64,000 bases of DNA from Candidatus Helarchaeota archaeon (GTDB lineage Archaea > Asgardarchaeota > Lokiarchaeia > Helarchaeales > RDOG01): NCBI GenBank assembly GCA_019058315.1, contig JAHPZH010000002.1, positions 224,001 through 288,000 on the forward strand. Reading direction: 5' to 3'. Positions within the stretch are counted from its first letter, which is position 1, and each line of letters opens with the position of its first letter. Below the pieces are notes generated by a model. That model saw nothing but the letters and a program-made list of their open reading frames with translations. It was not told where the DNA came from and ran no database searches. Below are positions 35,897-50,348 of the stretch, in pieces. Both the position numbers and the translations under genes were made by a program.

Positions 35897-38575
35897 CTAA
35901 ATAGGAAGATTAATTGAAAAAAAGGAAGGTTTGATTATTATCTCATATTCATTATAAACGATTTTATCAGGCAGATGAAGTTTTAAATTTAATTTATAAC
36001 GACCACTTCTTCCTTTAGGTAATAATACGTTTATTTCTCCAATTTTGATCAATGAATCCTTATCTATATTAATATTATATTCATTCTGAAAGATAGCTTT
36101 ACCAGAACTTGGTGAAATATCAACTGTTAATTTAATATCATTAAATTCTTGGTGTAAGTCGTTTGTCACATACAATTCAGTTTTAAATCGTTTTCCTTGA
36201 GTATAATTTTTATTTGGCCATTTCATTATAAACGGATATACTGGTTCAAAGCAATTTTTAACTACATAATAAGCCTTTTTAGGTTCACGCCAATAGTCGA
36301 CGATACTCCATGTGATTCCAGGGAAACAATCGTTGAATAGAAAATGTATTACACCTCCACAATGATCATATTTCAAAAATCTAAATAGTTCTATGTGAAA
36401 TTTTGCTATCTCAGCTTGATAATCTTGAGTCGCTTGTATAAATTCCTCTAAAGTTTTAAAATTTTCTTCTTTAGCATAGTTTCTGACAAACATTTGTTGA
36501 TATCGATGATATTTTATTAAAATCGCTGTATTTAAGGGGAATAAGTCCTCTGGATTATCCTTAAAACATGGAAATTTTTGTAAACTTTCCAAATTTGGAA
36601 ATGCTTGTGCACCAAATTCCGTTACGAATCGAACTTTTCTTCTACTAGTTAAGAATTTATAAGCTGCTCTATATCTAGGAGCTGTTGGCCAATAATATCC
36701 ACAATAACTATGAAGGTCAGTGCCTCCTCGTATTAGACCTGCTATACCCGAATTTTTTACAATTATTCCGTTATGATTTTTTTCAGGTTCGAGCTCCATT
36801 TCAAGGACTTTAACCATTTCTGAATCTAATTTGTCCTTATTAAAATTTCTAACAATATTCCACGGAAGTGCATTAACTGGCAATGTTAAAACACAAAATA
36901 GTAAGAATTCAATTAGATTACCCATCGTTAATATAGTATCTGTGTGAAATAATGGATTTGTTTCTAATACTCCAGGAATTAACGTCATTTCGGGTAAAAA
37001 GAAATCTAAAATTGTTGGAATGGAAAATATAAGGAAAACGCCTATAGCTTCTTTTTCATTTACGAAATTTAATGGTGGCATTTGAAGAAGAAGGGCTATA
37101 GCAATGCCTAATAAAACAGGTTTTGTAATAAATGGAATATCTTTAAAGATATCACGACCCAAATCTAAAAATTCACGTGTTGTTGTTGAAAATTGCCATG
37201 TGCTTATATTAAAAACTGATGACCCAGGAAATAGGGTAATAATTAAATTTACACCAAAAAGTAAGAAAATTAGCCCTATTAAAAAAAGGGGAATTTTTAA
37301 TTTTCCTAAAAGTTCAAAAGGTTCATTATGTGTACAATAAATTGCTTGTGAGGGGTGATTTTGAAGTAATTCAACAGCTTTTTTAGCTTGTTTTTTTGCA
37401 GGTTCCAATATTTTTTTAGAATATCCCCATTGAAAAGGTAAATCTTGCCAAACAAGAACTCCCAATTCATCGCAGGCATTATGAAAAAGAGGTTCATTAT
37501 CAAGATGTGCGTGGACTCGAATCATATTCATATTACAATCCTTAATTAATTGGATGTCTTTTTTATAATCCTTGGGAGTACAGTATGCCAAACGCATATC
37601 ACATGGCGCATAGTTATTCCCTCTTATAAAAATTCTACGTCCGTTTAAGAATATCTTCCAACCCTTCTGCTTTGTAGTCATGTAAATTTCTCGAATTCCA
37701 AAAGTATTTTCTAAAGATTCAGATTCTCCATTTTGAATTAAAATCTGGGATTTTAAAGTATAAAGATTCTGCGCTCCATGATCCCATGTCCACCACAACT
37801 TAGCATCATCTATTTCTATTTCCTCATAGATTGTATTTGTCCCAATTACGAGTTTTTTGGTAAGATCTAAATTAATATTCTTACCTTCAAAATTTTTTGG
37901 ACTTACTTTTATTTTAAGGTTAATTTCAAGGTCTTTTTTTGATTCAATTATATAGATTACTTTAATTTTAGCCTTCTTTTCTGAAAGAATTTTTGGGATA
38001 ATTTTGATATTTTTGAAATAAGCTTGATCGGTGCTTATTAATTCTACACTTTTCCAAATTCCACCTGGATTTGTAACCGGATCGCTGGCGTCCCAATGGC
38101 TTAAAACACCCGTTATTTGTTTTTTATTCCACATATTTTTTTCGTCTTCACAAGTCACCTTTACAGCAATACTGTTTTCTTTTTCAAAATCTATTTTATC
38201 TGAAATATCAAATTCGAAGGGAAAGAAATATCCTTCATTTTCCCCCAATTTCTCTCCATTTAACCAAACAGAAGTCAGATAGAAGACTCCATTAAATCTC
38301 AACCTTATAATTTTATTTTTAAATTCGCTCGGAGGAATAAAATTTGTTCTATACCAAACAATAGGTCCTCCATAATCATTATATATCCCATCTTTACTTA
38401 AATCTGTAATATATTTTTCATTTGCTTGCCAATGTCCTGGTACTTTAATTTTATCCCATGTACTATCATCATACTCAGTGTTAAAAAATTTTTGGACTTC
38501 ACCCTGATTATTCTCATCCTTTATTACTTTCCATGTGCCATCTAACTTCTGTATCAATTGAAAAAACTCCTTCAT
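35897..38575 (-). CDS. Glycoside hydrolase family 2 (beta-mannosidase-like) with internal multi-TM insertion
   Basis: VPGHWQ, LRFNGVFY..SVWLNG, GGIWK.V, NMIRVHAH, CDELGVLVWQD, HNEP, TEFGAQ, WSIVDYWR.PK. Confidence 0.88.
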   Translation of the reverse strand: MKEFFQLIQKLDGTWKVIKDENNQGEVQKFFNTEYDDSTWDKIKVPGHWQANEKYITDLSKDGIYNDYGGPIVWYRTNFIPPSEFKNKIIRLRFNGVFYLTSVWLNGEKLGENEGYFFPFEFDISDKIDFEKENSIAVKVTCEDEKNMWNKKQITGVLSHWDASDPVTNPGGIWKSVELISTDQAYFKNIKIIPKILSEKKAKIKVIYIIESKKDLEINLKIKVSPKNFEGKNINLDLTKKLVIGTNTIYEEIEIDDAKLWWTWDHGAQNLYTLKSQILIQNGESESLENTFGIREIYMTTKQKGWKIFLNGRRIFIRGNNYAPCDMRLAYCTPKDYKKDIQLIKDCNMNMIRVHAHLDNEPLFHNACDELGVLVWQDLPFQWGYSKKILEPAKKQAKKAVELLQNHPSQAIYCTHNEPFELLGKLKIPLFLIGLIFLLFGVNLIITLFPGSSVFNISTWQFSTTTREFLDLGRDIFKDIPFITKPVLLGIAIALLLQMPPLNFVNEKEAIGVFLIFSIPTILDFFLPEMTLIPGVLETNPLFHTDTILTMGNLIEFLLFCVLTLPVNALPWNIVRNFNKDKLDSEMVKVLEMELEPEKNHNGIIVKNSGIAGLIRGGTDLHSYCGYYWPTAPRYRAAYKFLTSRRKVRFVTEFGAQAFPNLESLQKFPCFKDNPEDLFPLNTAILIKYHRYQQMFVRNYAKEENFKTLEEFIQATQDYQAEIAKFHIELFRFLKYDHCGGVIHFLFNDCFPGITWSIVDYWREPKKAYYVVKNCFEPVYPFIMKWPNKNYTQGKRFKTELYVTNDLHQEFNDIKLTVDISPSSGKAIFQNEYNINIDKDSLIKIGEINVLLPKGRSGRYKLNLKLHLPDKIVYNEYEIIIKPSFFSINLPI

Positions 38576-39612: not shown

Positions 39613-40188
39613 TTGAAAATGCAAACAAAGAAAAAAAAAGTTTTTAAAATTGTAGTATTGGGAGAAGCTGGAGTAGGAAAAACCAGTTTAGTTAGGAGAT
39701 ATTGCGAGGGGACTTTCCTAGAAGGATATAAAACTACAATTGGCAGCGATTTTTATGTAAAATATCTTCGTTGTGAGGATGGAAGTCCCTTAATTCTTTC
39801 AATTTGGGATTTAGCGGGAGAACATCGTTTTCAGTTTGTAATGGAGAATTTTATGAAAGGTGCAAAAGGAGCACTCCTTGTTTTTGATCTAACAAAAAAA
39901 AGAACATTCATAAAATTAGGTGAATGGTTACAAATATTACAAAAAGCAGCTGGATCAGTACCTTTGATTCTAATAGGCAATAAATCAGATTTGATTGATT
40001 CACGTTTTGTTTCTGCTGATGAAGCTAAGGCATATGCTGAAAATAATGGAATTGCTTATTATGAAAGCTCAGCTAAAACAAGCTGGAATGTTGATAATAT
40101 CTTTCAAAAAATATCAAATTTATGTTTAAATAAAGAAGCAACTGAAGTTGTTGAATACAAAGAAGAAGCAAGGCGAATAGACTTATGA
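39613..40188 (+). CDS. Rab-like small GTPase
   Basis: FKIVVLGEAGVGKTS, TIGSDF, WDLAG, GNKSD, ESSAK. Confidence 0.9.
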   Translation: MKMQTKKKKVFKIVVLGEAGVGKTSLVRRYCEGTFLEGYKTTIGSDFYVKYLRCEDGSPLILSIWDLAGEHRFQFVMENFMKGAKGALLVFDLTKKRTFIKLGEWLQILQKAAGSVPLILIGNKSDLIDSRFVSADEAKAYAENNGIAYYESSAKTSWNVDNIFQKISNLCLNKEATEVVEYKEEARRIDL

Positions 40189-40198
40189 GGGGTATATT

Positions 40199-40396
40199 TT
40201 GCCACAAAAAATAATTGTTTGCCCAAAATGCAAAGAACAACTAAATTTTATTGTTGATGATTCAGTAATTGCTAATTCTAAAAGTTTTCCGATACCGAGT
40301 GTTGTTCAACACAAAGATCATTATCTAATAGTCTATCTTGATTCTCAATGTGCAATATGTGATATAGAAATTCCCTTATTTTTTAAAAGTGAATAA
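40199..40396 (+). CDS. Small putative Zn-binding protein downstream of the GTPase
   Basis: CPKC ... H.DH ... YLD; GAGGGG SD; 10-bp gap after the GTPase. Confidence 0.6.
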   Translation: MPQKIIVCPKCKEQLNFIVDDSVIANSKSFPIPSVVQHKDHYLIVYLDSQCAICDIEIPLFFKSE

Positions 40397-40429: not shown

Positions 40430-40753
40430 TTAAAATCCACATTTAAGAGTTGAATTATAAATATGATTAGCATGCATTTCTATAATTTCAAGCTCTTCTT
40501 TTCCTATTGTTTTTTTAATTAATTTACCATCAATTATTACTCTATCTCCCTTTCGTATGATTATTTGACCTGTACGTGTATAAGTATAAACTAAGAATTC
40601 GTCTGGAATGCCTTCAATTTCTTTATCTAATTTAAGACTAAATTCATAATGACCACCTGCTTGAGAACGTCCATATATCAAATTCGAAGTCGTAGTTCCC
40701 GAGAGAACTCCTTTAAATAACTCCACTTTTCCCATTAGATTCAACTTCCGCAT
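40430..40753 (-). CDS. OB-fold-like array member A (single domain; likely TTG start at 40744)
   Basis: ELFKGVLSGT...FSLKLDKEIEGIP.EFLV...RKGDRV.I.GKL...HIYN.TLK. Confidence 0.75.
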   Translation of the reverse strand: MRKLNLMGKVELFKGVLSGTTTSNLIYGRSQAGGHYEFSLKLDKEIEGIPDEFLVYTYTRTGQIIIRKGDRVIIDGKLIKKTIGKEELEIIEMHANHIYNSTLKCGF

Positions 40754-41379
40754 TTAAGAGTTTTATTATAAATATGATGAGCTTCCATTTCATTTATATG
40801 AAATTCGTCGTTTTCCATTCTGCCTTGGTACAATTTACCTTCAATTAACACTTTATCTCCCTTTTTTATGATTAAACCATAAACATCATGTGAATAAACC
40901 ATAAATTCATTTGGAATGCCTTCAATTTTCATATCTAATTTAATGCTAAACTGACGTTCCAAAAAAGAATAGATTATGTCTGAAGTTGCAGTTCCTGAGA
41001 GAATACCGTTAAAAACCTCCTTCTTCTTAATTTTTAAACCTGCTCCATGTTTAAGTGTTTTATTATAAACATAATTAGCTTTCATTTTTATGTTTTCGAT
41101 TTGCTCTTTACCCAAGAAATATTGATATAAATAACCTCCAATTAATACTATATCTTCTCTTCTTAACACAGTTCCCCTGATATACTTATAGATAGGTGTT
41201 CCTTTGGGTTTGGTACGAAGTCTTTTGTGGTAAATTTCAACTAAAAATTCCTTTGGAATCCCTTCAATCTCCTCATTTAATTTAAAAGCAAAATTAATAC
41301 CGCCATGATATAAAGTAACTGTTCCCGATAACATTCCTTTAAATAATTCAATTTTTTTCATTAGATTCAACCTCCGCAT
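40741..41379 (-). CDS. OB-fold-like array member B (two domains; likely TTG start at 41370)
   Basis: Two copies of the same ~100-aa framework joined by KHGAGLKIK. Confidence 0.75.
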   Translation of the reverse strand: MRRLNLMKKIELFKGMLSGTVTLYHGGINFAFKLNEEIEGIPKEFLVEIYHKRLRTKPKGTPIYKYIRGTVLRREDIVLIGGYLYQYFLGKEQIENIKMKANYVYNKTLKHGAGLKIKKKEVFNGILSGTATSDIIYSFLERQFSIKLDMKIEGIPNEFMVYSHDVYGLIIKKGDKVLIEGKLYQGRMENDEFHINEMEAHHIYNKTLKCGS

Positions 41380-41963
41380 ATAAGATCTCTATTATAAACA
41401 TTCAAAGCTTTCATTTCTGTATAAGTATATTCATTTTTTCCCATAGTACCATGGAACAAAATGCCTTCAATTAGTATTTTATCTCCTCTGCGTATGATGA
41501 TTAGGTTAGACGAAGAAACCACAAATTCATTTGGAATTCCTTCAATTTCTTTATCTAATTTAATGCTAAATAACCAAATATACTGAGAAAAGGTGAGTAG
41601 ATCTGAAGTTGCAGTTCCTGAGAGACTACCGTTAAATACCTCTTTTCTCTTAATTTTTAAACCTGCTCCATGTTTAAGTGAAGTATTATAAACATTATCA
41701 GTTTTCATAAATATATGTTCGAGTTGTTCTTTACCCTCGAAAGATTGGAATATTTTCCCTCCAATTTTTACATTATCTCCTTTTCTTAAGAATAAGAAAT
41801 GGTGACTAATTTTACTTCTAACTAAAAATTCCTTTGGAAGACCTTCAATCTCTTCATTTAATTTAATACTAAAATTATAACCATCCCTCATCATAAACGA
41901 ATCTGAAGTAACAGTTGCAGATAAAACTCCTTTAAATAATTCTATTTTTCCCATTAAATTCAA
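41367..41963 (-). CDS. OB-fold-like array member C (two domains)
   Basis: Same framework; GGAGG immediately upstream of the TTG. Confidence 0.75.
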   Translation of the reverse strand: MNLMGKIELFKGVLSATVTSDSFMMRDGYNFSIKLNEEIEGLPKEFLVRSKISHHFLFLRKGDNVKIGGKIFQSFEGKEQLEHIFMKTDNVYNTSLKHGAGLKIKRKEVFNGSLSGTATSDLLTFSQYIWLFSIKLDKEIEGIPNEFVVSSSNLIIIRRGDKILIEGILFHGTMGKNEYTYTEMKALNVYNRDLICGG

Positions 41964-41984
41964 CCTCCATTTTTGCCATAAGAT

Positions 41985-42614
41985 TCAAAATCCGTATTTA
42001 AGATTTGTATTATAAATGTGATCAACATGCATTTCTGTAATGCTAAATTCATTTTTTCCCATAATACCTTGGAATAACTTGCCCTCAATCAATAATTTAT
42101 CTCCGTTTCTTATGAATATATTGGTATGTATTTGTGAACAAACCAAGAATTCATTTGGAATACCTTCAATTTCTTGATCTAATTTAATGCTAAATACTAA
42201 AGGAGGTTGTGCGGATATATAAAGTTTTACATCTGAAGTTGCAGTTCCTGAGAGCTTACCTTTAAAGACCTCTTTTCTTTTTATTTTTAAACCTTTTCCA
42301 TGTTTAAGTGTTGTATTATAAACATAATTAGCCTTCATTCTTATTCTTTCAAGTCTTTCTCTAGGCTCTAAATATTTCAATAATGTACCTCCTATTGTTA
42401 CAATATCTCCTTTTCTTACGAAAAATGGACTTTTAGGATAATTAAATAGTGATTGTCTTGAGTGAAAAGAAACTATAAATTCCTTTGGAAGTCCTTCAAA
42501 CTCTTCATTTAATTTAATGGTAAAACCATAACTTATAAAAGCTCCTGATTTCGAATCTAAAGTAGCAGTTCCAGATAAAACTCCTTTAAATAATTCTTTT
42601 TTCCCGATTTTCAA
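41985..42614 (-). CDS. OB-fold-like array member D (two domains), first gene of the operon
   Basis: Same framework; TTG start after GGGG. Confidence 0.75.
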   Translation of the reverse strand: MKIGKKELFKGVLSGTATLDSKSGAFISYGFTIKLNEEFEGLPKEFIVSFHSRQSLFNYPKSPFFVRKGDIVTIGGTLLKYLEPRERLERIRMKANYVYNTTLKHGKGLKIKRKEVFKGKLSGTATSDVKLYISAQPPLVFSIKLDQEIEGIPNEFLVCSQIHTNIFIRNGDKLLIEGKLFQGIMGKNEFSITEMHVDHIYNTNLKYGF

Positions 42615-42769
42615 AACCCCATATATAAGTTCTTTTAATTAATTATCACAAATAATTGATAATTATTAAAGGAACTAAGTTTTGATATAAAAGTATTATT
42701 TTATAGGAAATTTTATGTATATGTATAAAAAAGTAAGTTATATTCAAGATTACTGTAAAGGGATAAAAA

Positions 42770-43909
42770 ATGAGTGAAAAATGGTTATTTGAAGCTAATA
42801 AAGACGAACCTGTAAAATATTTGGCACATATAAATGCACTTGTAGGAAATATGACAAGCACTTTAGGAAAAAATCCTGACTCACCTGGTTTAATTGCGAT
42901 TGAAGGGTTTAAAGGACATGCAATAAGTCTAGGTTATTTTCAAGATCTGGATACCGAAATTCATTATGATAAATGCAAAGCTGCAGGCATCTTAGTAGGG
43001 CGTAGGTCCGGTGTTGGTGGAGGTACTATCTTTGTGGACCGATCTAGCATGGCTATGGCAATGGTTGCCGACCAAAATAAAGAAATTGTTAATAATACCT
43101 TTCCTGACATGGATTCTGCATTTCATAAAGTGGGTGCTGTTATAAAAAATGCATATGAAATTCTTGGAGTAAAGGATCCTTGGTATAAACATATTGGAGA
43201 TATTAAAATCGGAAAAGGAAGTAATGAACGGAAAATCACAGGATTTGGGTTTGTAAATTTCGGAAATCTTTTAATTTGTAATTGTATTCTTTCAATTGGA
43301 GAGATGGATATCGATAAATTTATAGACTGTGCAAATATTCCTCCAGAAAAAATTAAAGATAAAAATTTTACTCAAATTGCAGATTATTTAAAGGGAGGAA
43401 TAACAAGCATTGAAAGAGAAACCGGTTATTGTCCAACATTTGAAGAAGTTAAAGATGCATTCTACAATTCTTTTAAGAAAGTGCTAAATTTTGATTTTGA
43501 AATACATGAACGGACAGAAAAAGATATTCGAAAAATTGAAAAATCTATTACACGTGATGAACGCAAACATGGAGAAGACTTCCTATTTGAATTTTCTAGT
43601 AAGAAAAAATTTGTAAATATTCCCAATGAGTGGAAGGTTAACTTTGGAAGATACAAATCACGAAAATTACTGGTTGCCCATATAATTACTAACCAAGAAA
43701 TCATAGAAGATGTAATGTTTTCAGGAGATTTTTATTGTAAACCTACTGCATACTTATTTGAATTAGAGAGATCTTTAAAGGGACTGAATTATAAAGATCA
43801 CAAATCTATCGAAAACAAGATAAAAGAGATATTTAATCGCGAAGATTGGGAAATGCCCGAAGTTATTACGGAAGATTTTTTAGAAGTAATTAAAACAGCA
43901 ATAAAATAA
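42770..43909 (+). CDS. lplA: Lipoate-protein ligase A family protein with C-terminal domain
   Basis: ISLGYFQ, RRSGVGGGTIFVD, GDI...RKITG, FSGDF. Confidence 0.8.
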   Translation: MSEKWLFEANKDEPVKYLAHINALVGNMTSTLGKNPDSPGLIAIEGFKGHAISLGYFQDLDTEIHYDKCKAAGILVGRRSGVGGGTIFVDRSSMAMAMVADQNKEIVNNTFPDMDSAFHKVGAVIKNAYEILGVKDPWYKHIGDIKIGKGSNERKITGFGFVNFGNLLICNCILSIGEMDIDKFIDCANIPPEKIKDKNFTQIADYLKGGITSIERETGYCPTFEEVKDAFYNSFKKVLNFDFEIHERTEKDIRKIEKSITRDERKHGEDFLFEFSSKKKFVNIPNEWKVNFGRYKSRKLLVAHIITNQEIIEDVMFSGDFYCKPTAYLFELERSLKGLNYKDHKSIENKIKEIFNREDWEMPEVITEDFLEVIKTAIK

Positions 43910-43920
43910 TTACCAAATAC

Positions 43921-44006
43921 TTATGTATTCCTGAAAAATAGGAAATTAGACACCATAATTCCTGAGAAAACTCCTTTATACAATTCTATTTTGTTATTAG
44001 ATTCAA
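43921..44006 (-). pseudogene. Frameshifted, truncated 5' remnant of an array gene
   Basis: TTG AAT CTA junction as in members B and A, then KIELYKGVFSG in a shifted frame ending at TAA. Confidence 0.7.
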
Positions 44007-44632
44007 ATTCCGGATTTAAGAGTTATATTATATACATGTTTCGCTTCCATTTCCATTATATATAAGTCAGTTTTTCCCATGGTACCCCGGAACAATGTAC
44101 CTTCAATTAATAATTTATCTCCGTTTTTTATGAATAGATATGAAATATGTGGTGTAAACACCAAAAATATATTTGGAATTCCTTCAATTTCTAGATCTAA
44201 TTTAATGCTAAATACAAAGTTAACTTTACGCATACCAATATATTTTAGATCTGAAGTTGCAGTTCCTGAAAGTTTACCCTTAAAAACTTCTTTTTTCTTA
44301 ATTTTTAAACCTAATCCATTTTTAAGTGTTCGATTATAAATATAATTAGCTTTCATAAATATATTTTCGATTTGTTCTTTACCCCTGAAGTACTGGTTTA
44401 ATGTACCTCCAATTGTTACAATATCTCCTTTTCTTAAGAGAAATGGTTTGACACGACCTGCATTCCTATCAAAATTTGATGAATATTTAACAAAAAATTC
44501 CTTTGGAAGCCCTTCAATCTCTTCATTTAATCTAATAGTAAAACTATAAGCATAAGGATCAATAATTACCAAATCTGAAGTAACTGTTCCAGATAATACT
44601 CCTTTAAATAGCTGTTTTTCTCGGATTTTTAA
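44003..44632 (-). CDS. OB-fold-like array member E (two domains); the position homologous to D's TTG start reads TTA, so possibly a pseudogene
   Basis: Frame extends upstream of track start 44572 as LKIREKQLFKGVLSGTVTSD, matching member D's N-terminus. Confidence 0.7.
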   Translation of the reverse strand, partial: LKIREKQLFKGVLSGTVTSDLVIIDPYAYSFTIRLNEEIEGLPKEFFVKYSSNFDRNAGRVKPFLLRKGDIVTIGGTLNQYFRGKEQIENIFMKANYIYNRTLKNGLGLKIKKKEVFKGKLSGTATSDLKYIGMRKVNFVFSIKLDLEIEGIPNIFLVFTPHISYLFIKNGDKLLIEGTLFRGTMGKTDLYIMEMEAKHVYNITLKSGI

Positions 44633-44802
44633 AACCCCACTTTCAAAATTTGTTGTATTAAAAAATTTTGTGTAATTTATGTTATAAATAATAATATAAA
44701 ATAATTAGCAAATAGGTCCACAAATCATAATCATTTTAACAAATTTAATGAAAAGAATTAAAGGAATGAATTTATTTTCAAGAATAATACTTGAAAGGAA
44801 TA

Positions 44803-44862
44803 ATGCACGAGAAGTGGCTATTCGAAGTTAATAAAAACGAATCTATAAGTCATTTAATATAA
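44803..44862 (+). pseudogene. Remnant of the lplA 5' end
   Basis: MHEKWLFEVNKNESISHLI* versus LplA MSEKWLFEANKDEPVKYLA. Confidence 0.75.
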
Positions 44863-44867
44863 AGTAA

Positions 44868-46172
44868 TCACCAAATACTAATATGTTCCTGACATATTGG
44901 ACATTTCTGAGAGTGCTTTACATATTCTTTCCAACAACATTTATGAAAAATTCTTTTACAATGTGTGCACCTTATTTGACATTCAAATTCCCCTTGAACT
45001 CCGGGAATTGTTCCTGATACATTTTTTTGACAATAAGGACAGACTAAATTCTTACAAATACTGCATACAAATTGAGAGGTATCTGCCATACTATCTCTTA
45101 ATTTATTAAAAAATTCAGCTAAATTAGAGGCAGGAAACCATTCTATAATGAAATCATTAATTGCAGTCTGAAATTTTTCTGAAAGTTGTTGATCTTGGGG
45201 TAAAGTTACTAGGTTTATGGCTGGGGGGGAAGAAGGGTAGTTATTTGGAATTTGGATATCGAATTTGTATTTTTTAGGATTTGTTTTAGATTCTGTAAGA
45301 GAAACATGTATCATATTATTAACTGAATCAAAAATTGCATCCAAATCTTTTTGTTTTAAAAGTTTTAACTCTAAATTTATTCTTAATTTCCTATCTAAAA
45401 TTGCTGAAATTTCTCTTAGTATATGAACTACATGACTGCTACTTGGATTCCAAGATCTTATTGATTTTAAACTATCTAAAAAAATGAATTTTTCCATTTT
45501 TTGTGAAGGAATAATTTTTGGGAGTTGGGGAAACTCTTTCAAGTCAACTTCAAGGTCAAATTGTTCAGCATCCAAACTATAAATATGAATTTTTAATTTG
45601 GTTGATAATTCTGTGGGTTGTTCAACATCAAACTCCTGATAAAGACTTTGAACTTCTTCATCTAATCTTGATTTTCCCATAATTTCTTCTTCAATTGTTC
45701 GAAGAATTTCAACTAGATGAGCTGGAGGTTGTTGAGGAAAATTCTTAATTAAGGCAATTGAATCTGGTGGTCCGAGGAGCTCTATCAGTTCTTGAGGAAA
45801 TGAAATTTCAATTCGTTTTGGATAATCTTGGCATTTAAGTCCTACTGGATAATAAAAACCAATTGAAGAATAAAAATCCACTTTGATATCAGTAACATTT
45901 TCAGGATTTAATTCAACTTGAAAATTATCAATAACTGATTCTATCTCCTTTTTTAGAATTTTTTGCTGTTCTGACAAATCATTTTCTATCGAAGTAATTT
46001 GATTTGATATTTCTTTATTTCTATTTTCTATTTCTTCTATTTTAGCTGTATATTGAGATAAATTAATTTTTCCTGAATTGAAATCACTTTTCAATTCCAG
46101 GTTCTTTAATTTATTTTTCTCAATCTCCTCCTCTAATGTGAAGATTAAATCTAAAATTTTAAAAGAATTCAT
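44868..46172 (-). CDS. Coiled-coil + three UEV/RWD (inactive E2-like) repeats + C4HC3 RING-like finger; putative ubiquitin E3 ligase
   Basis: Three repeats with DYPKR/EFPQLP/NYPSSPP and terminal (W/F)xP...L helices; CPYC...CTHC..FH.CC...CPIC. Confidence 0.7.
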   Translation of the reverse strand: MNSFKILDLIFTLEEEIEKNKLKNLELKSDFNSGKINLSQYTAKIEEIENRNKEISNQITSIENDLSEQQKILKKEIESVIDNFQVELNPENVTDIKVDFYSSIGFYYPVGLKCQDYPKRIEISFPQELIELLGPPDSIALIKNFPQQPPAHLVEILRTIEEEIMGKSRLDEEVQSLYQEFDVEQPTELSTKLKIHIYSLDAEQFDLEVDLKEFPQLPKIIPSQKMEKFIFLDSLKSIRSWNPSSSHVVHILREISAILDRKLRINLELKLLKQKDLDAIFDSVNNMIHVSLTESKTNPKKYKFDIQIPNNYPSSPPAINLVTLPQDQQLSEKFQTAINDFIIEWFPASNLAEFFNKLRDSMADTSQFVCSICKNLVCPYCQKNVSGTIPGVQGEFECQIRCTHCKRIFHKCCWKEYVKHSQKCPICQEHISIW

Positions 46173-46219
46173 GGAATTAATAATCCTAAAAATCTATATA
46201 TGTTTTAAAAAACTATTAA

Positions 46220-46501
46220 TTACGAAATTTTTTGCTCTCTTAATGCTTTTCCTAATGTTTTTCCCCACTTTTCCGCTAAGTCTGCCATTATACCATCTAT
46301 TGGGTCTTGAATTATATCATATCCCCTTAATTCTTCAAGAAAGTTCCATAATCGTAATTTAGTTGTTTTTTTTCGGAGATCTTTTCTCGGAAATCTCTTT
46401 AAAAAACCATCAATTTTGCCTTTAATTTCAGGATCTAATCCGGTCTTTTTACTTAATTCCATAAAATTTTGAATGATTGTACGCGAATTCATTTTGCTCA
46501 C
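46220..46501 (-). CDS. Hypothetical helical protein, translationally coupled to the roadblock gene
   Basis: 93-aa ORF; ATGA overlap at 46498-46501. Confidence 0.6.
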   Translation of the reverse strand: MSKMNSRTIIQNFMELSKKTGLDPEIKGKIDGFLKRFPRKDLRKKTTKLRLWNFLEELRGYDIIQDPIDGIMADLAEKWGKTLGKALREQKIS

Positions 46502-46947
46502 ATCGTAGGAATTTTTAAATCTGAAAAATCTACATCTTTTTTCATTGGTTGTTTTGGACTTAAAGGTAATTTAGCGATCTCTGCAGCTGCTTGATTTAAG
46601 GCTAAGAGAGTAATTCCTAAGGATGCACCAGCTGGCAAATTTACTAAAATCAGTGCACTGTCTCCTGCACTTTTGACAATCATTTGTCCATTTTCAGAAT
46701 CGATTAACATTTTGGATAAAGTTCCATGTTCATAAATATCTGTAGATCTTGTGGCTAAAGCAAGGATACTGGCTCCTAACCCAGCAGCCACAATTTCAGT
46801 CTCATTATCTAGGGGTTTATTTGTTTCTTTATCAAATGAAGTTATTGGGAGTCCATTTTTATCAATTATTACCGCAGATTTTATAGCAGTAGTCTCAAGC
46901 ATCTTCTTTAGGATATCATGCAGTTGAATCTCAATTTTTTTCGACAT
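46498..46947 (-). CDS. Roadblock/LC7 domain protein
   Basis: SAVIIDKNGLPI, AAGLGASIL, MLIDSENG.MIV..AG..A.IL, LG. Confidence 0.88.
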   Translation of the reverse strand: MSKKIEIQLHDILKKMLETTAIKSAVIIDKNGLPITSFDKETNKPLDNETEIVAAGLGASILALATRSTDIYEHGTLSKMLIDSENGQMIVKSAGDSALILVNLPAGASLGITLLALNQAAAEIAKLPLSPKQPMKKDVDFSDLKIPTM

Positions 46948-48268: not shown

Positions 48269-49732
48269 TTATCCCTTAGTAACTCCAATCGGTACCATTC
48301 TAACTAATTTTTTTGCTATTTCTAGTTTATCACTGACTTTAGCGACTAAATCAATATCTTTATAAGCTTTTGGAGCTTCTTCGCTTATAATTTTCATAGA
48401 TGCAGCTTTTACATATGTTCCTCTTTTTTGAAGTTCTTTTTTTATAGTCTCTCCCCAAAATTTTCGCTTAGCAGCAGAACGTGATAAAACTCTACCTGCA
48501 CCATGTGCTGTTGATCCAAAGGATAGTTCCATAGATCTTTTTCCGCCAAGTAATAAATAAGATGCTGTTCCCATACTTCCAGGAAGTAGTACAGGTTGCC
48601 CTATCTCCTTATATGCGACACTTAATGCTGGATGAAAAGGAGGAAATGCTCGTGTTGCACCTTTACGATGAACACAAAATGTTTTCTTTTCACCATTAAT
48701 TTCATGTTCTTCTATTTTGGCAATATTATGTGCTACATCGTATATAAGATTTAAATCTAAATCTTCAGCAGATGTATTAAATATTCTTTCAAAGCTGTTC
48801 CTGACCCAATGCATAATCATCTGTCTATTTGCCCAAGCAAAATTTGCAGCACAAGCCATTGCTTTTAAATATCGTTGACCCTCTGCACTAGAAACTGGTG
48901 CACAAGCTAATTCTCTGTCTGGTAATTTTATATTATATTTATGCATTGCTCGCTCCATTTCCCTCAAATAATCTGTGCATATTTGATGTCCAAAACCTCG
49001 ACTTCCAGTATGTATCATGACTAGAATTTGTCCTGGTTCAATTATTTTCAATCTTTTTGCTAGTGCTTCATCATATATTTTATCAACTTTTTGAATCTCT
49101 AAAAAATGATTTCCAGATCCTAAACTACCTAATTGGGGAATACCTCTTTCTTTTGCTCTATCTGAAATAGTATGTGCATCAGCTCCGGCCAATTTACCTC
49201 CTTCTTCGGCATGTTTTAAATCTTCAGGCCATCCATAACCATTTTCTACAGCCCATTCCATACCATTTTCTGCAGCTTGATCCAATTCATTTCTAGTTAA
49301 ACGAATTTTTCCTTTGGATCCCAATCCAGAGGGAACGTTTCTAAAAAGTGAATCTATTAATTCCTTTAATCTTTTAATATCCTTTTGAAAAAGATTAGTT
49401 CTAACTAATCGTACTCCACAATTTATATCATATCCAACTCCACCTGGAGAAACTACTCCTTCCTCCACATCTACAGCTGCAACTCCGCCTATAGGAAAAC
49501 CATAACCTTGATGTGCATCAGGAAGAATAGCGGAAAACTTTGTAATGCCAGGTAGAAAAGTAATATTAGACGCTTGCTGGAGTGTTCGATCCCTTTTCAT
49601 AGCTTCCAGCAATTGCTCATTACAATAAACTCTTGCAGGAACTTTCATTCCCTGCTTAAATTTTGGGGAAATTTCATATACATATTCCTCCAATTTTTTG
49701 ATCGGAATGTTTGAACTGTCTATCTTTGACAT
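48269..49732 (-). CDS. rtcB: RNA-splicing ligase RtcB
   Basis: PDAHQGYGFPIG, GYDINCG, GSGNHFLE, HTGSRG, HNIAK, HRKGAT, HGAGR, EEAP.AYK. Confidence 0.96.
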   Translation of the reverse strand: MSKIDSSNIPIKKLEEYVYEISPKFKQGMKVPARVYCNEQLLEAMKRDRTLQQASNITFLPGITKFSAILPDAHQGYGFPIGGVAAVDVEEGVVSPGGVGYDINCGVRLVRTNLFQKDIKRLKELIDSLFRNVPSGLGSKGKIRLTRNELDQAAENGMEWAVENGYGWPEDLKHAEEGGKLAGADAHTISDRAKERGIPQLGSLGSGNHFLEIQKVDKIYDEALAKRLKIIEPGQILVMIHTGSRGFGHQICTDYLREMERAMHKYNIKLPDRELACAPVSSAEGQRYLKAMACAANFAWANRQMIMHWVRNSFERIFNTSAEDLDLNLIYDVAHNIAKIEEHEINGEKKTFCVHRKGATRAFPPFHPALSVAYKEIGQPVLLPGSMGTASYLLLGGKRSMELSFGSTAHGAGRVLSRSAAKRKFWGETIKKELQKRGTYVKAASMKIISEEAPKAYKDIDLVAKVSDKLEIAKKLVRMVPIGVTKG

Positions 49733-49919
49733 ATTATTTTACCTCAAATATATTATGAAACTATAATTTTCAAACAATCATAATTAATAGAATTCTAAAA
49801 ACTAGGATATGTTACATTTGAAAATTAAATAGCTTTAATTACTACATTATTTCAATTTATAAAATTGAATTAGTTTATTTAAGAATTTTGTTTTTAAGTC
49901 TAATTTACTAATAAATTCT

Positions 49920-50348
49920 CTAGATATCCAATACAAACCTTAAAATTACATTATCAGATAATATTTTAATTTCCATTAAGCTATAAGTTGGTGCTTTTAT
50001 TTCTGTTTTTGATTCATGCTTTTGGGGATCAAATTCTTCACCCCATAATTCCCCAAATAATTCAATTTTCCCATTTATCGATTCTAATTTTAGTATTTTA
50101 ATTTTAGAAAAAATAAGATTTTTTGAATCAAAAATATAAATTAATTCTCCAAGCCAATCAAAAAGTAAAGCTTCTGTATCTTCAGCCTCTAATCTAATTT
50201 CATGTTTAATAATTGGCTCTATTTTTTGAATATTAGTCATCGTCTCAAATACTGCTTTACCCGCCTCTTCAAAGGCTTCGGTCAAATTTCTGGCTTGAAC
50301 TTCAATATAAACATCGCTTATATGCTCAAGAAACTTAAAACTTCCCAT
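49920..50348 (-). CDS. Archease
   Basis: FLEHISDV, LLFDWL.ELI, GEEFD, EIKAPTY, LDI C-terminus; upstream of rtcB. Confidence 0.9.
   Translation of the reverse strand: MGSFKFLEHISDVYIEVQARNLTEAFEEAGKAVFETMTNIQKIEPIIKHEIRLEAEDTEALLFDWLGELIYIFDSKNLIFSKIKILKLESINGKIELFGELWGEEFDPQKHESKTEIKAPTYSLMEIKILSDNVILRFVLDI

Follow-up and report, generated by a model that had tools for sequence, protein, structure and literature searches.

What kind of protein family keeps a small domain nearly constant, repeats it nine times within a few kilobases, and lets the same few segments of it diverge from copy to copy? The question is raised by an array of paralogous genes on the minus strand of a 64,000-nucleotide stretch of DNA from a Candidatus Helarchaeota archaeon (G000:C5:224001-288000, the window below), in a 5.8-Mb genome of 12 contigs. 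The locus is the largest cluster of an undescribed, lineage-restricted multigene family of small, probably cytoplasmic proteins. We give about one chance in two to the explanation that it is a birth-and-death repertoire of cytoplasmic binders with an oligonucleotide/oligosaccharide-binding (OB) fold, carrying varied loops on a selected scaffold, with nucleic acid as the weakly favored ligand.

An earlier note on this DNA, made from the sequence alone, had described nine copies of a domain of about 100 amino acids (aa) in five paralogous genes, and the open reading frames (ORFs), the alignment, and the profile scores confirm it. ORFs A to E hold 1 + 2 + 2 + 2 + 2 = nine domains of 99 to 112 aa, which can be aligned end to end when the two-domain proteins are split at their GLKIK linker, and a profile hidden Markov model (HMM) built from the nine domains scores every copy at E values of 1e-35 to 1e-44. 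Gene E is separated from A to D by a ligase-like gene on the plus strand. The features of the array are as follows.

40430-40753, minus strand: gene A, a single OB domain, 107 aa as the listed ORF (HMM E value 5e-44)
40741-41379, minus strand: gene B, two OB domains
41367-41963, minus strand: gene C, two OB domains
41985-42614, minus strand: gene D, two OB domains in 209 aa, heading the main array
42770-43909, plus strand: LplA-like ligase gene, 379 aa, within the array but on the other strand
43921-43989 (approximate), minus strand: decayed 5' fragment of a tenth OB copy (IELYKGVFSGIMVSNF..., IELYKGVFSG...), as read from the sequence
44003-44644 (upper end approximate), minus strand: gene E, two OB domains, with the frame open from 44701
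43912-44869, no strand assigned: inserted block of 958 bp comprising E, its upstream region, and the decayed fragment

The decayed fragment comes after E, lies out of frame, and has ATA in place of its ATG start codon. For three of the genes, the likely start is an ATG inside the listed ORF, at 40735 in A (giving 101 aa), at 41361 in B (giving 206 aa), and at 41954 in C.

The conserved motifs listed in the note are real and are seen in the domain alignment, where the framework reads ELFKG.LSGT.TS, F.IKL..EIEG.P.EF.V, RKGD.V.I.G.L, and M.A..YN.TLK.G. Per-column entropy, computed over 19 array domains from this genome and a relative, also bore out the claim that the copies vary mainly in loops, on a scaffold that is conserved: entropy was low in β1 (0.89 bits) and in L23 (0.78) and high in L12 (1.97, with indels), in the β3-β4 connector (about 3 bits, with indels of up to 17 aa), and in L45 (1.8). 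On the predicted model, the three variable segments map to L12 (var1), to the β3-β4 connector that replaces the usual helix (var2), and to the tip region of the β4-β5 hairpin (var3); the longest connector insert is that of domain B1 (KRLRTKPKGTPIYKYIRGT). Counted over var1, var2, and the β4-β5 hairpin, the variable segments are enriched in Arg (6.9% versus 1.9% in the scaffold) and Tyr (5.5% versus 3.3%), as had been proposed, and Phe and His, named in the same proposal, show no enrichment over the scaffold. The word "hypervariable" proved too strong, as the loops of A and B are largely kept in the relative, including the 23-aa loop of B1. The isoelectric point (pI) is 8 to 10 for most array domains, and no signal peptide or membrane segment was seen in the translations, which were read by eye with no predictor run.

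The nine domains are not nine equal units. Identity is 50 to 60% among the N-terminal domains and 58 to 63% among the C-terminal ones and falls to 42 to 47% between the two sets. In the tree, one clade gathers the N-terminal domains (support 100/99), and a less strongly supported group holds the C-terminal ones (84/84). These separate clades indicate that a two-domain gene was duplicated as a whole.

The array domains are predicted to be five-stranded OB barrels like those of the single-stranded DNA-binding protein (SSB). The OB fold that the note had suggested is supported in agreement by AlphaFold2 (AF2), Foldseek, VIA-align, and the ESM Atlas. The AF2 model of a single domain (the C-terminal domain of D, with an alignment of 34 domain sequences) is a five-stranded barrel with a predicted local distance difference test score (pLDDT) of 88.9. 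The best 50 Foldseek matches of this model in the PDB are all SSB or PriB (E values from 2.6e-3; template modeling [TM] score about 0.6), and VIA-align gives Z scores of 9.9 for Streptomyces SSB (root mean square deviation [rmsd] of 3.2 Å over 90 residues), 9.2 for a domain of Methanococcus maripaludis replication protein A (RPA), 8 to 9 for the OB domains of MCM and of class IIb aminoacyl-tRNA synthetases, and 8.0 for an engineered OBody (PDB 4gn3). The top structural match in the ESM Atlas is an SSB cluster (TM 0.69), and its feature-based search returned weak, unnamed clusters, with an SSB-bearing cluster at rank 38 (score 0.87). The model of the whole D protein has a pLDDT of 88.0 and a predicted TM score (pTM) of 0.83, and over the whole chain it matches best the two-OB SSBs of Thermus and Deinococcus (E value 4e-6), followed by POT1, HIN, and Teb1.

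Sequence comparison adds no name to this fold. Profile searches against Pfam, NCBIfam, PADLOC, PHROGs, and PDB sequences, with the library scans of sequence families run on A, D, and their neighbors, gave nothing significant for the OB proteins; the search against PDB sequences reached SSB at an E value of 0.84. We found no description of the family in the literature. The suggestion that it has no known ordinary function thus holds across these libraries.

The evolutionary behavior of the array could be followed in a syntenic relative, a 7.7-kb contig of GCA_048940975.1 (locus L027) whose gene order is roadblock gene, 90-aa gene, RING protein gene, ligase-like gene, six OB genes (R1 to R6), 65-aa gene, and Ras gene. 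Amino acid identity, synonymous divergence (dS), and the ratio of nonsynonymous to synonymous divergence (dN/dS) between the two loci are as follows.

Flanking proteins versus relative: identity 81-93%, dS 0.57-0.82, dN/dS 0.06-0.13
A versus R6: identity 79%, dS 0.61, dN/dS 0.19
B versus R3: identity 81%, dS 0.21, dN/dS 0.53
C versus R2: identity 62-65%, dS 0.34, dN/dS 0.72
D versus R1: identity 53%, dS 0.48, dN/dS 0.68

The array genes therefore evolve several times faster than their neighbors (dN/dS of 0.19 to 0.72 versus 0.06 to 0.13), and gene content differs between close relatives, both in line with the note's reading. Among the flanks, the 65-aa protein is 88% identical in the relative with its synteny kept, and the proteins of the roadblock/RING operon are 81 to 86% identical. 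Domain C2 clusters with R2c of the relative (support 95/94). At the sequence level, 1:1 orthologues of D and E are lacking in the relative; D and R1 are positional orthologues, the 109 nucleotides upstream of them being 90% identical and the proteins 53%.

The scaffold is under purifying selection. When D is partitioned, dN/dS is 0.45 in the scaffold (below 1, p = 0.005) and 0.96 in the loops; with A, B, and C pooled, dN is 0.236 in the loops and 0.106 in the scaffold. A dN/dS above 1 was not demonstrated, the loops of D lying near 0.96 and the value of 1.46 in the C1 loops coming from 38 codons only and not being significant; the loop alignments are uncertain, so that loop values near 1 need care. 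Scaffold dS between array paralogues is 0.19 to 0.7, often 0.2 to 0.35 and below the dS of the orthologous flanks, which is consistent with gene conversion or some other constraint at the nucleotide level. Three four-domain paralogues of a more distant genome, G147, show the same mosaic, with dN/dS of 0.35 to 0.56, tracts of very low dS, and windows in which pN exceeds pS.

Turnover is visible in the array itself. In the relative, the RING and ligase-like genes abut (2273/2274), and in another sediment metagenome a contig runs straight from window position 43911 to 44870; hence the 958-bp block with E, which lies between the convergent stop codons of the ligase-like and RING genes, is an insertion private to this genome. 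The GTPase, ligase, and RING genes are covered by contigs from four sediment metagenomes; the OB genes get almost no cover at 80% likeness or more, and such a gap counts as no evidence.

How widely is the family spread? An exhaustive profile search of 1.84e9 representative proteins found 105 members, and PF01336 was carried only by its weakest matches (E values of 1e-7 to 1e-4). Matches occurred in 8 of 400 genomes of the Asgard phylum, with expansions in two lineages only, the present one and the genus g58; among 30 close relatives in the species collection there was no clear member, with single weak matches in two genomes. A scan of the IMG/VR viral contigs with the domain alignment found no relative. 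Known architectures comprise proteins with one, two, three, and four to five domains, proteins with an N-terminal zinc ribbon and two to four domains, and a single protein with HEAT repeats, a zinc ribbon, and two domains; the N-terminal zinc ribbon is carried by proteins of the second lineage, to which the member fused to HEAT repeats also belongs.

The present genome holds about 25 domains in 20 ORFs, and beyond the array, one- and two-domain genes are scattered on four contigs. The array type of the window is a derived clade. The neighborhoods of 13 scattered copies share no recurrent partner gene; one copy lies downstream of replication factor C (RFC) genes and one beside RecJ-like and RPA-like genes, which is about the level expected by chance. 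The RFC-linked member, an acidic two-OB protein directly downstream of two RFC genes (G000:C5:460331-463520, minus strand; L073:1401-4681), keeps this position in the relative genome at 81% identity.

In g58, the complete genome G147 (GCA_037305845.1) has at least 26 domains in two arrays near 2.88 to 2.91 Mb. The g58 domains are monophyletic (SH-aLRT 95), from which it follows that the two expansions were independent. The two G147 arrays (L039:8001-13720 and L055:6674-11777) consist of six tandem genes for a zinc ribbon plus two OB domains and three tandem genes for a zinc ribbon plus four OB domains, about 10 kb apart; in their proteins, L12 is about 12 to 40 aa long and the β4-β5 hairpin L(R/K).W.(R/K)P.Y is conserved.

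Few binding scaffolds are used as widely as the OB fold, and the explanation we prefer for the array is a repertoire of such binders. The array has expanded through tandem duplication of a two-domain gene, and its evolution is one of birth and death (duplication, translocation, decay, and loss), with a low synonymous divergence in the scaffold that fits partial gene conversion. Purifying selection holds the barrel, the acidic L23 (EIEGIP.EF), and the C-terminal YN.TLK.G. Three surface segments, namely L12, the β3-β4 connector, and the β4-β5 hairpin, vary in sequence and length from one paralogue to another, drifting about neutrally in some members. Each paralogue would hold a different ligand on the canonical OB face framed by L12 and L45. 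What the analysis shows is the predicted fold, the distribution, how the copies vary, how fast they evolve, and the structural turnover; from fold and variation we infer that the proteins bind at all, which surface they use, and the ligand class. Among ligand classes we lean slightly toward single-stranded DNA or RNA, given the proteins related in fold, a mostly basic charge, loops rich in Arg and Tyr, and, in relatives, zinc ribbons and a Trp/Arg hairpin; the acidic L23, the acidic members, and the missing profile match keep this preference weak. The hairpin motif of the second lineage recalls the aromatic L45 of SSB.

Several observations weigh against a repertoire of nucleic acid binders. 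The array-type domains have lost the β4-β5 hairpin Trp that most scattered copies and all g58 copies keep; several scattered copies, as well as R3c and R5c of the relative, are acidic (pI 4.9 to 5.9); and L23 (EIEGIP.E), conserved better than any other loop, is acidic, an unusual property for a surface that binds DNA. The Pfam families closest to such a role stay below their cutoffs, with PF00436 reaching at best an E value of 0.1 (13.1 bits versus a cutoff of 26), in gene B only, and PF01336 an E value of 0.043 (14.2 bits versus a cutoff of 27), in gene E only. The two-domain arrangement superposes on its best whole-chain matches with a global TM of only 0.29, and VIA-align takes one domain at a time, which together imply a predicted packing unlike that of any solved tandem-OB protein. 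Finally, near-neutral loops fit relaxed constraint as well as they fit functional diversification.

That last point is the core of a rival reading in which the array is largely debris, its redundant copies drifting under relaxed constraint with no paralogue-specific function. The loop dN/dS of about 1 in D, the missing canonical start of E and the decayed fragment that follows it, the likewise missing canonical start of the first gene of the relative, and the different copy content of close relatives would all be expected of it. It does not easily account for nine open frames with intact scaffolds whose dN/dS is well below 1, for the conservation of A and B at flank-like levels, long loops included, for the tight operon spacing with preserved Shine-Dalgarno sequences, or for the independent expansion of the same architecture in a second lineage. 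A purely degenerative reading is disfavored by the intact scaffolds, the conserved A and B, and the second expansion, and we consider debris improbable as an explanation. The same loops could instead point outward, to an intracellular repertoire for recognizing proteins (viral, toxin, or cargo) that is antibody- or OBody-like and may feed a neighboring effector such as the RING protein. We regard this as possible though unlikely. A constant scaffold with variable loops, dN/dS values several times those of the flanks with some loops near neutral, turnover of gene content between close relatives, independent tandem expansions in two lineages with a patchy phyletic distribution, and the HEAT fusion in the second lineage all suit it, and the OBody among the structural matches (Z 8.0) suggests that the fold can serve. 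It has to contend with the absence of any match to a PADLOC defense family or on viral contigs, with the failure to demonstrate dN/dS above 1, and with A and B loops that are conserved between relatives. Its link to an effector fares no better: the RING/roadblock/GTPase neighborhood, whose RING operon the note had offered as a possible effector, is common to very close relatives only, as the g58 arrays lie elsewhere, bordered at one end by MoxR-VWA, nitroreductase, and radical-SAM genes and at the other by an acyl-CoA dehydrogenase gene, and a convergent gene stands between the array and the RING operon, making cotranscription unlikely. PADLOC gave no match for A or D and only a weak BilB match for the RING protein (E value 0.007). 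Recognition of viruses or toxins and an E3 effector are speculation. As for how loops might be diversified, a diversity-generating retroelement (DGR) or other targeted mutagenesis, a search for which the note had proposed, has next to no chance of being the cause, the look of the variable loops being all that speaks for it: the genome has a single RVT_1 match, on another contig (C3), the DNA copies of the array are 62 to 84% alike, there is no near-identical pair of template and variable repeats, and indels of up to 17 aa set the loops apart, so that we rejected the array as a DGR target.

The ligase-like gene embedded in the array supplies the remaining rival, in which the OB proteins would be partners or acceptor substrates of this enzyme and a lysine, for example that of the hairpin-tip GKEE/GKNE, would be acylated. 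The gene matches PF21948 (E value 4.7e-14) and Lip_prot_lig_C (7e-4), and it has kept its catalytic motifs, with RRxxGGG..D and the lysine of RKITG aligning to solved LplA structures. It is the most divergent and weakest scoring of four paralogues in the genome; elsewhere, a further LplA-family paralogue is found some 200 bp away from a GcvH gene. Gene position also speaks for this rival: the gene lies inside the array here, a ligase-like gene is at the array edge in the relative (L027:2274-3413), and on a g58-like contig (L037:6297-7382) a gene 43% identical is enclosed by an OB array encoded on the other strand. This ligase subtype occurs in 7 of 400 Asgard genomes (this genome, five of the six g58 genomes, and one of the neighboring family), essentially the same two lineages in which the OB family is expanded, with three to four copies per genome in the second. 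The linkage is nevertheless not universal, as G147, with at least 26 OB domains in its arrays, lacks the subtype, no OB gene occurs within flanks of at most about 1.5 kb at eleven further second-lineage loci of the subtype, and the family members P0015, P0018, and P0021 showed no further ligase adjacency; gene transfer between the two lineages could also explain the common distribution. The domain has no invariant lysine column (its invariant columns are D, G, N, and G), and its fold is predicted to be OB rather than the lipoyl/biotinyl hybrid barrel; the OB proteins have no Pfam match to PF00364 or to GcvH PF01597, the genome's matches to both of which lie elsewhere. A complex prediction for the LplA-like protein and the single-domain protein A scored 0.02, below the mark, which is no evidence either way. 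Overall, a role of the OB proteins as dedicated partners or substrates of the ligase seems quite improbable. Returning to the binder repertoire, a bolder version of it would be a natural, genome-encoded OB-fold recognition system, the cell's own equivalent of engineered OBodies, diversified by duplication, gene conversion, and loop turnover against changing targets (viral or mobile-element nucleic acids or proteins), with the LplA-like ligase acylating or loading the modules in some lineages; this we hold to be doubtful.

Which known systems does the array resemble? Its domains have their best structural matches in SSB and PriB (PF00436; PDB 4dam, 1ue6, 6cqm, and 2ccz; Z 9 to 10, TM 0.6 to 0.7), with which they share a five-stranded OB barrel of about 100 aa, a long β4-β5 hairpin, and a faint echo in KGD.V.IEG.L. 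They differ from these proteins in having no significant sequence similarity to them, no β3-β4 helix, an acidic, conserved L23, and tens of paralogues per genome instead of one or two, and, compared with bacterial SSB, in lacking the acidic C-terminal tail, as they end 4 to 6 residues past β5 (...TLKCGF, then stop). The two-OB SSBs of Deinococcus-Thermus (PDB 1se8, 2cwa, and 3udg) likewise have two SSB-type OB domains in about 200 aa (Foldseek E values of 4e-6 to 1.5e-5), whereas the predicted packing of D differs from theirs (rmsd about 20 Å and 16% identity at the global TM given above). RPA (M. maripaludis and P. abyssi), POT1, TEBP, Teb1, and CST also carry tandem OB domains (single-domain Z 7 to 10), and the joining of a zinc ribbon with two to four OB domains in relatives of the second lineage is reminiscent of the RPA type. 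In contrast to that type, the family has no profile match to RPA families, its zinc ribbon is N-terminal and not inside an OB domain, the genome has separate RPA-like genes, and the copy number and evolutionary rate of the array are far higher. In POT1 and TEBP, OB loops can confer sequence-specific recognition of single-stranded DNA.

OBodies, engineered from an archaeal aspartyl-tRNA synthetase anticodon domain (PDB 4gn3), have the same fold (Z 8.0), a fixed barrel, and a varied face and loops, but they are artificial. In the LplA2-GcvH-L operon of Firmicutes, a paralogous LplA has a private acceptor protein; the window offers a comparable divergent extra LplA with intact motifs beside small β-barrel proteins, although its neighbors are predicted OB folds without an invariant lysine and the linkage is not universal. 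To our knowledge, no natural family combines tens of paralogues, a fixed OB barrel, and varied loops, and a literature search found none.

If the paralogues have distinct ligands, they would provide a ready-made natural set of binders and a view of conflict or regulation within Asgard cells; a recognition repertoire, if true, would mean that the closest prokaryotic relatives of eukaryotes have a recognition system of a new kind. Should the embedded LplA-like ligase act on them, lipoate/biotin-type ligases would have targets other than the lipoyl domains known so far. Even if both ideas fail, the array would still illustrate birth-and-death evolution cleanly in an archaeon, its scaffold probably evolving in concert.

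The array is flanked by the following genes.

39613-40396, plus strand: Ras-family small GTPase (191 aa; Ras Pfam E value 3.5e-47) and a Cys-rich 65-aa protein
44868-46947, minus strand: roadblock/LC7, 93-aa, and 434-aa genes in one operon, the last with weak UBC/RWD and RING-H2 matches (Robl_LC7 is annotated in the relative)

The 434-aa protein has weak Pfam matches only (zf-rbx1, 0.002; UQ_con, 0.005; RWD, 0.011), and its E2/UEV-RING label comes from these subthreshold matches alone.

How the array genes are translated can be read in part from their junctions. The note had proposed TTGA stop/start overlaps from C to B and from B to A. In-frame TTG codons overlapping TGA do exist there; their use as starts is doubtful, as both junctions read GGA GGT TGA ATCTA ATG, with an ATG 5 nucleotides past each stop, and the annotated start in the relative is the same ATG at the same spacing. 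The closing codons of the upstream gene thus double as the Shine-Dalgarno sequence of the next cistron, a duty that probably constrains the C-terminal CGG/CGS residues. The codons that form it, at the ends of C and B, are GGA GGT or GGA AGT, followed by TGA (window positions 41340-41400 and 40715-40775, minus strand).

The start codon of D, TTG, shares bases with the stop of a mini-ORF of three codons just upstream (ATG GGG TTT TGA). At the position of this TTG, E has TTA and R1 of the relative has TCA; both genes are without a canonical start, and their N-terminal domains are open and intact. The first canonical start in E is an internal TTG at 44572, and E may be a young pseudogene or the user of an unusual start. 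The NCBI annotation of R1 is a 117-aa protein from an internal Met. The mini-ORF (ATG or GTG, then GGG TTT) is kept one base out of frame at the starts of D, E, and R1 (window positions 42600-42640 and 44625-44660, minus strand; L027:3560-3600). A programmed frameshift as the start of E and R1 was considered and rejected: a +1 slip at TTT-TGA/TAA enters a dead frame, and a −1 slip needs a mismatched A site. A family copy 113.6 kb beyond the window (G000:C5:401568-401900, minus strand) also has no canonical start; it is preceded (C5:401568-402000) by GGAGGTG, an ATG, and a seven-codon ORF ending in AAT TTT TAA, with the OB frame at +1.

Two further observations concern the surroundings of the array. 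An 892-aa ORF (35897-38575, minus strand) has a middle part that by eye is a run of hydrophobic, membrane-like segments, and the regions on either side of that part may be glycoside-hydrolase-like. On the other side, at 48269-50348 on the minus strand, two adjacent ORFs resemble, by eye only, RtcB (an RNA ligase) and archease.

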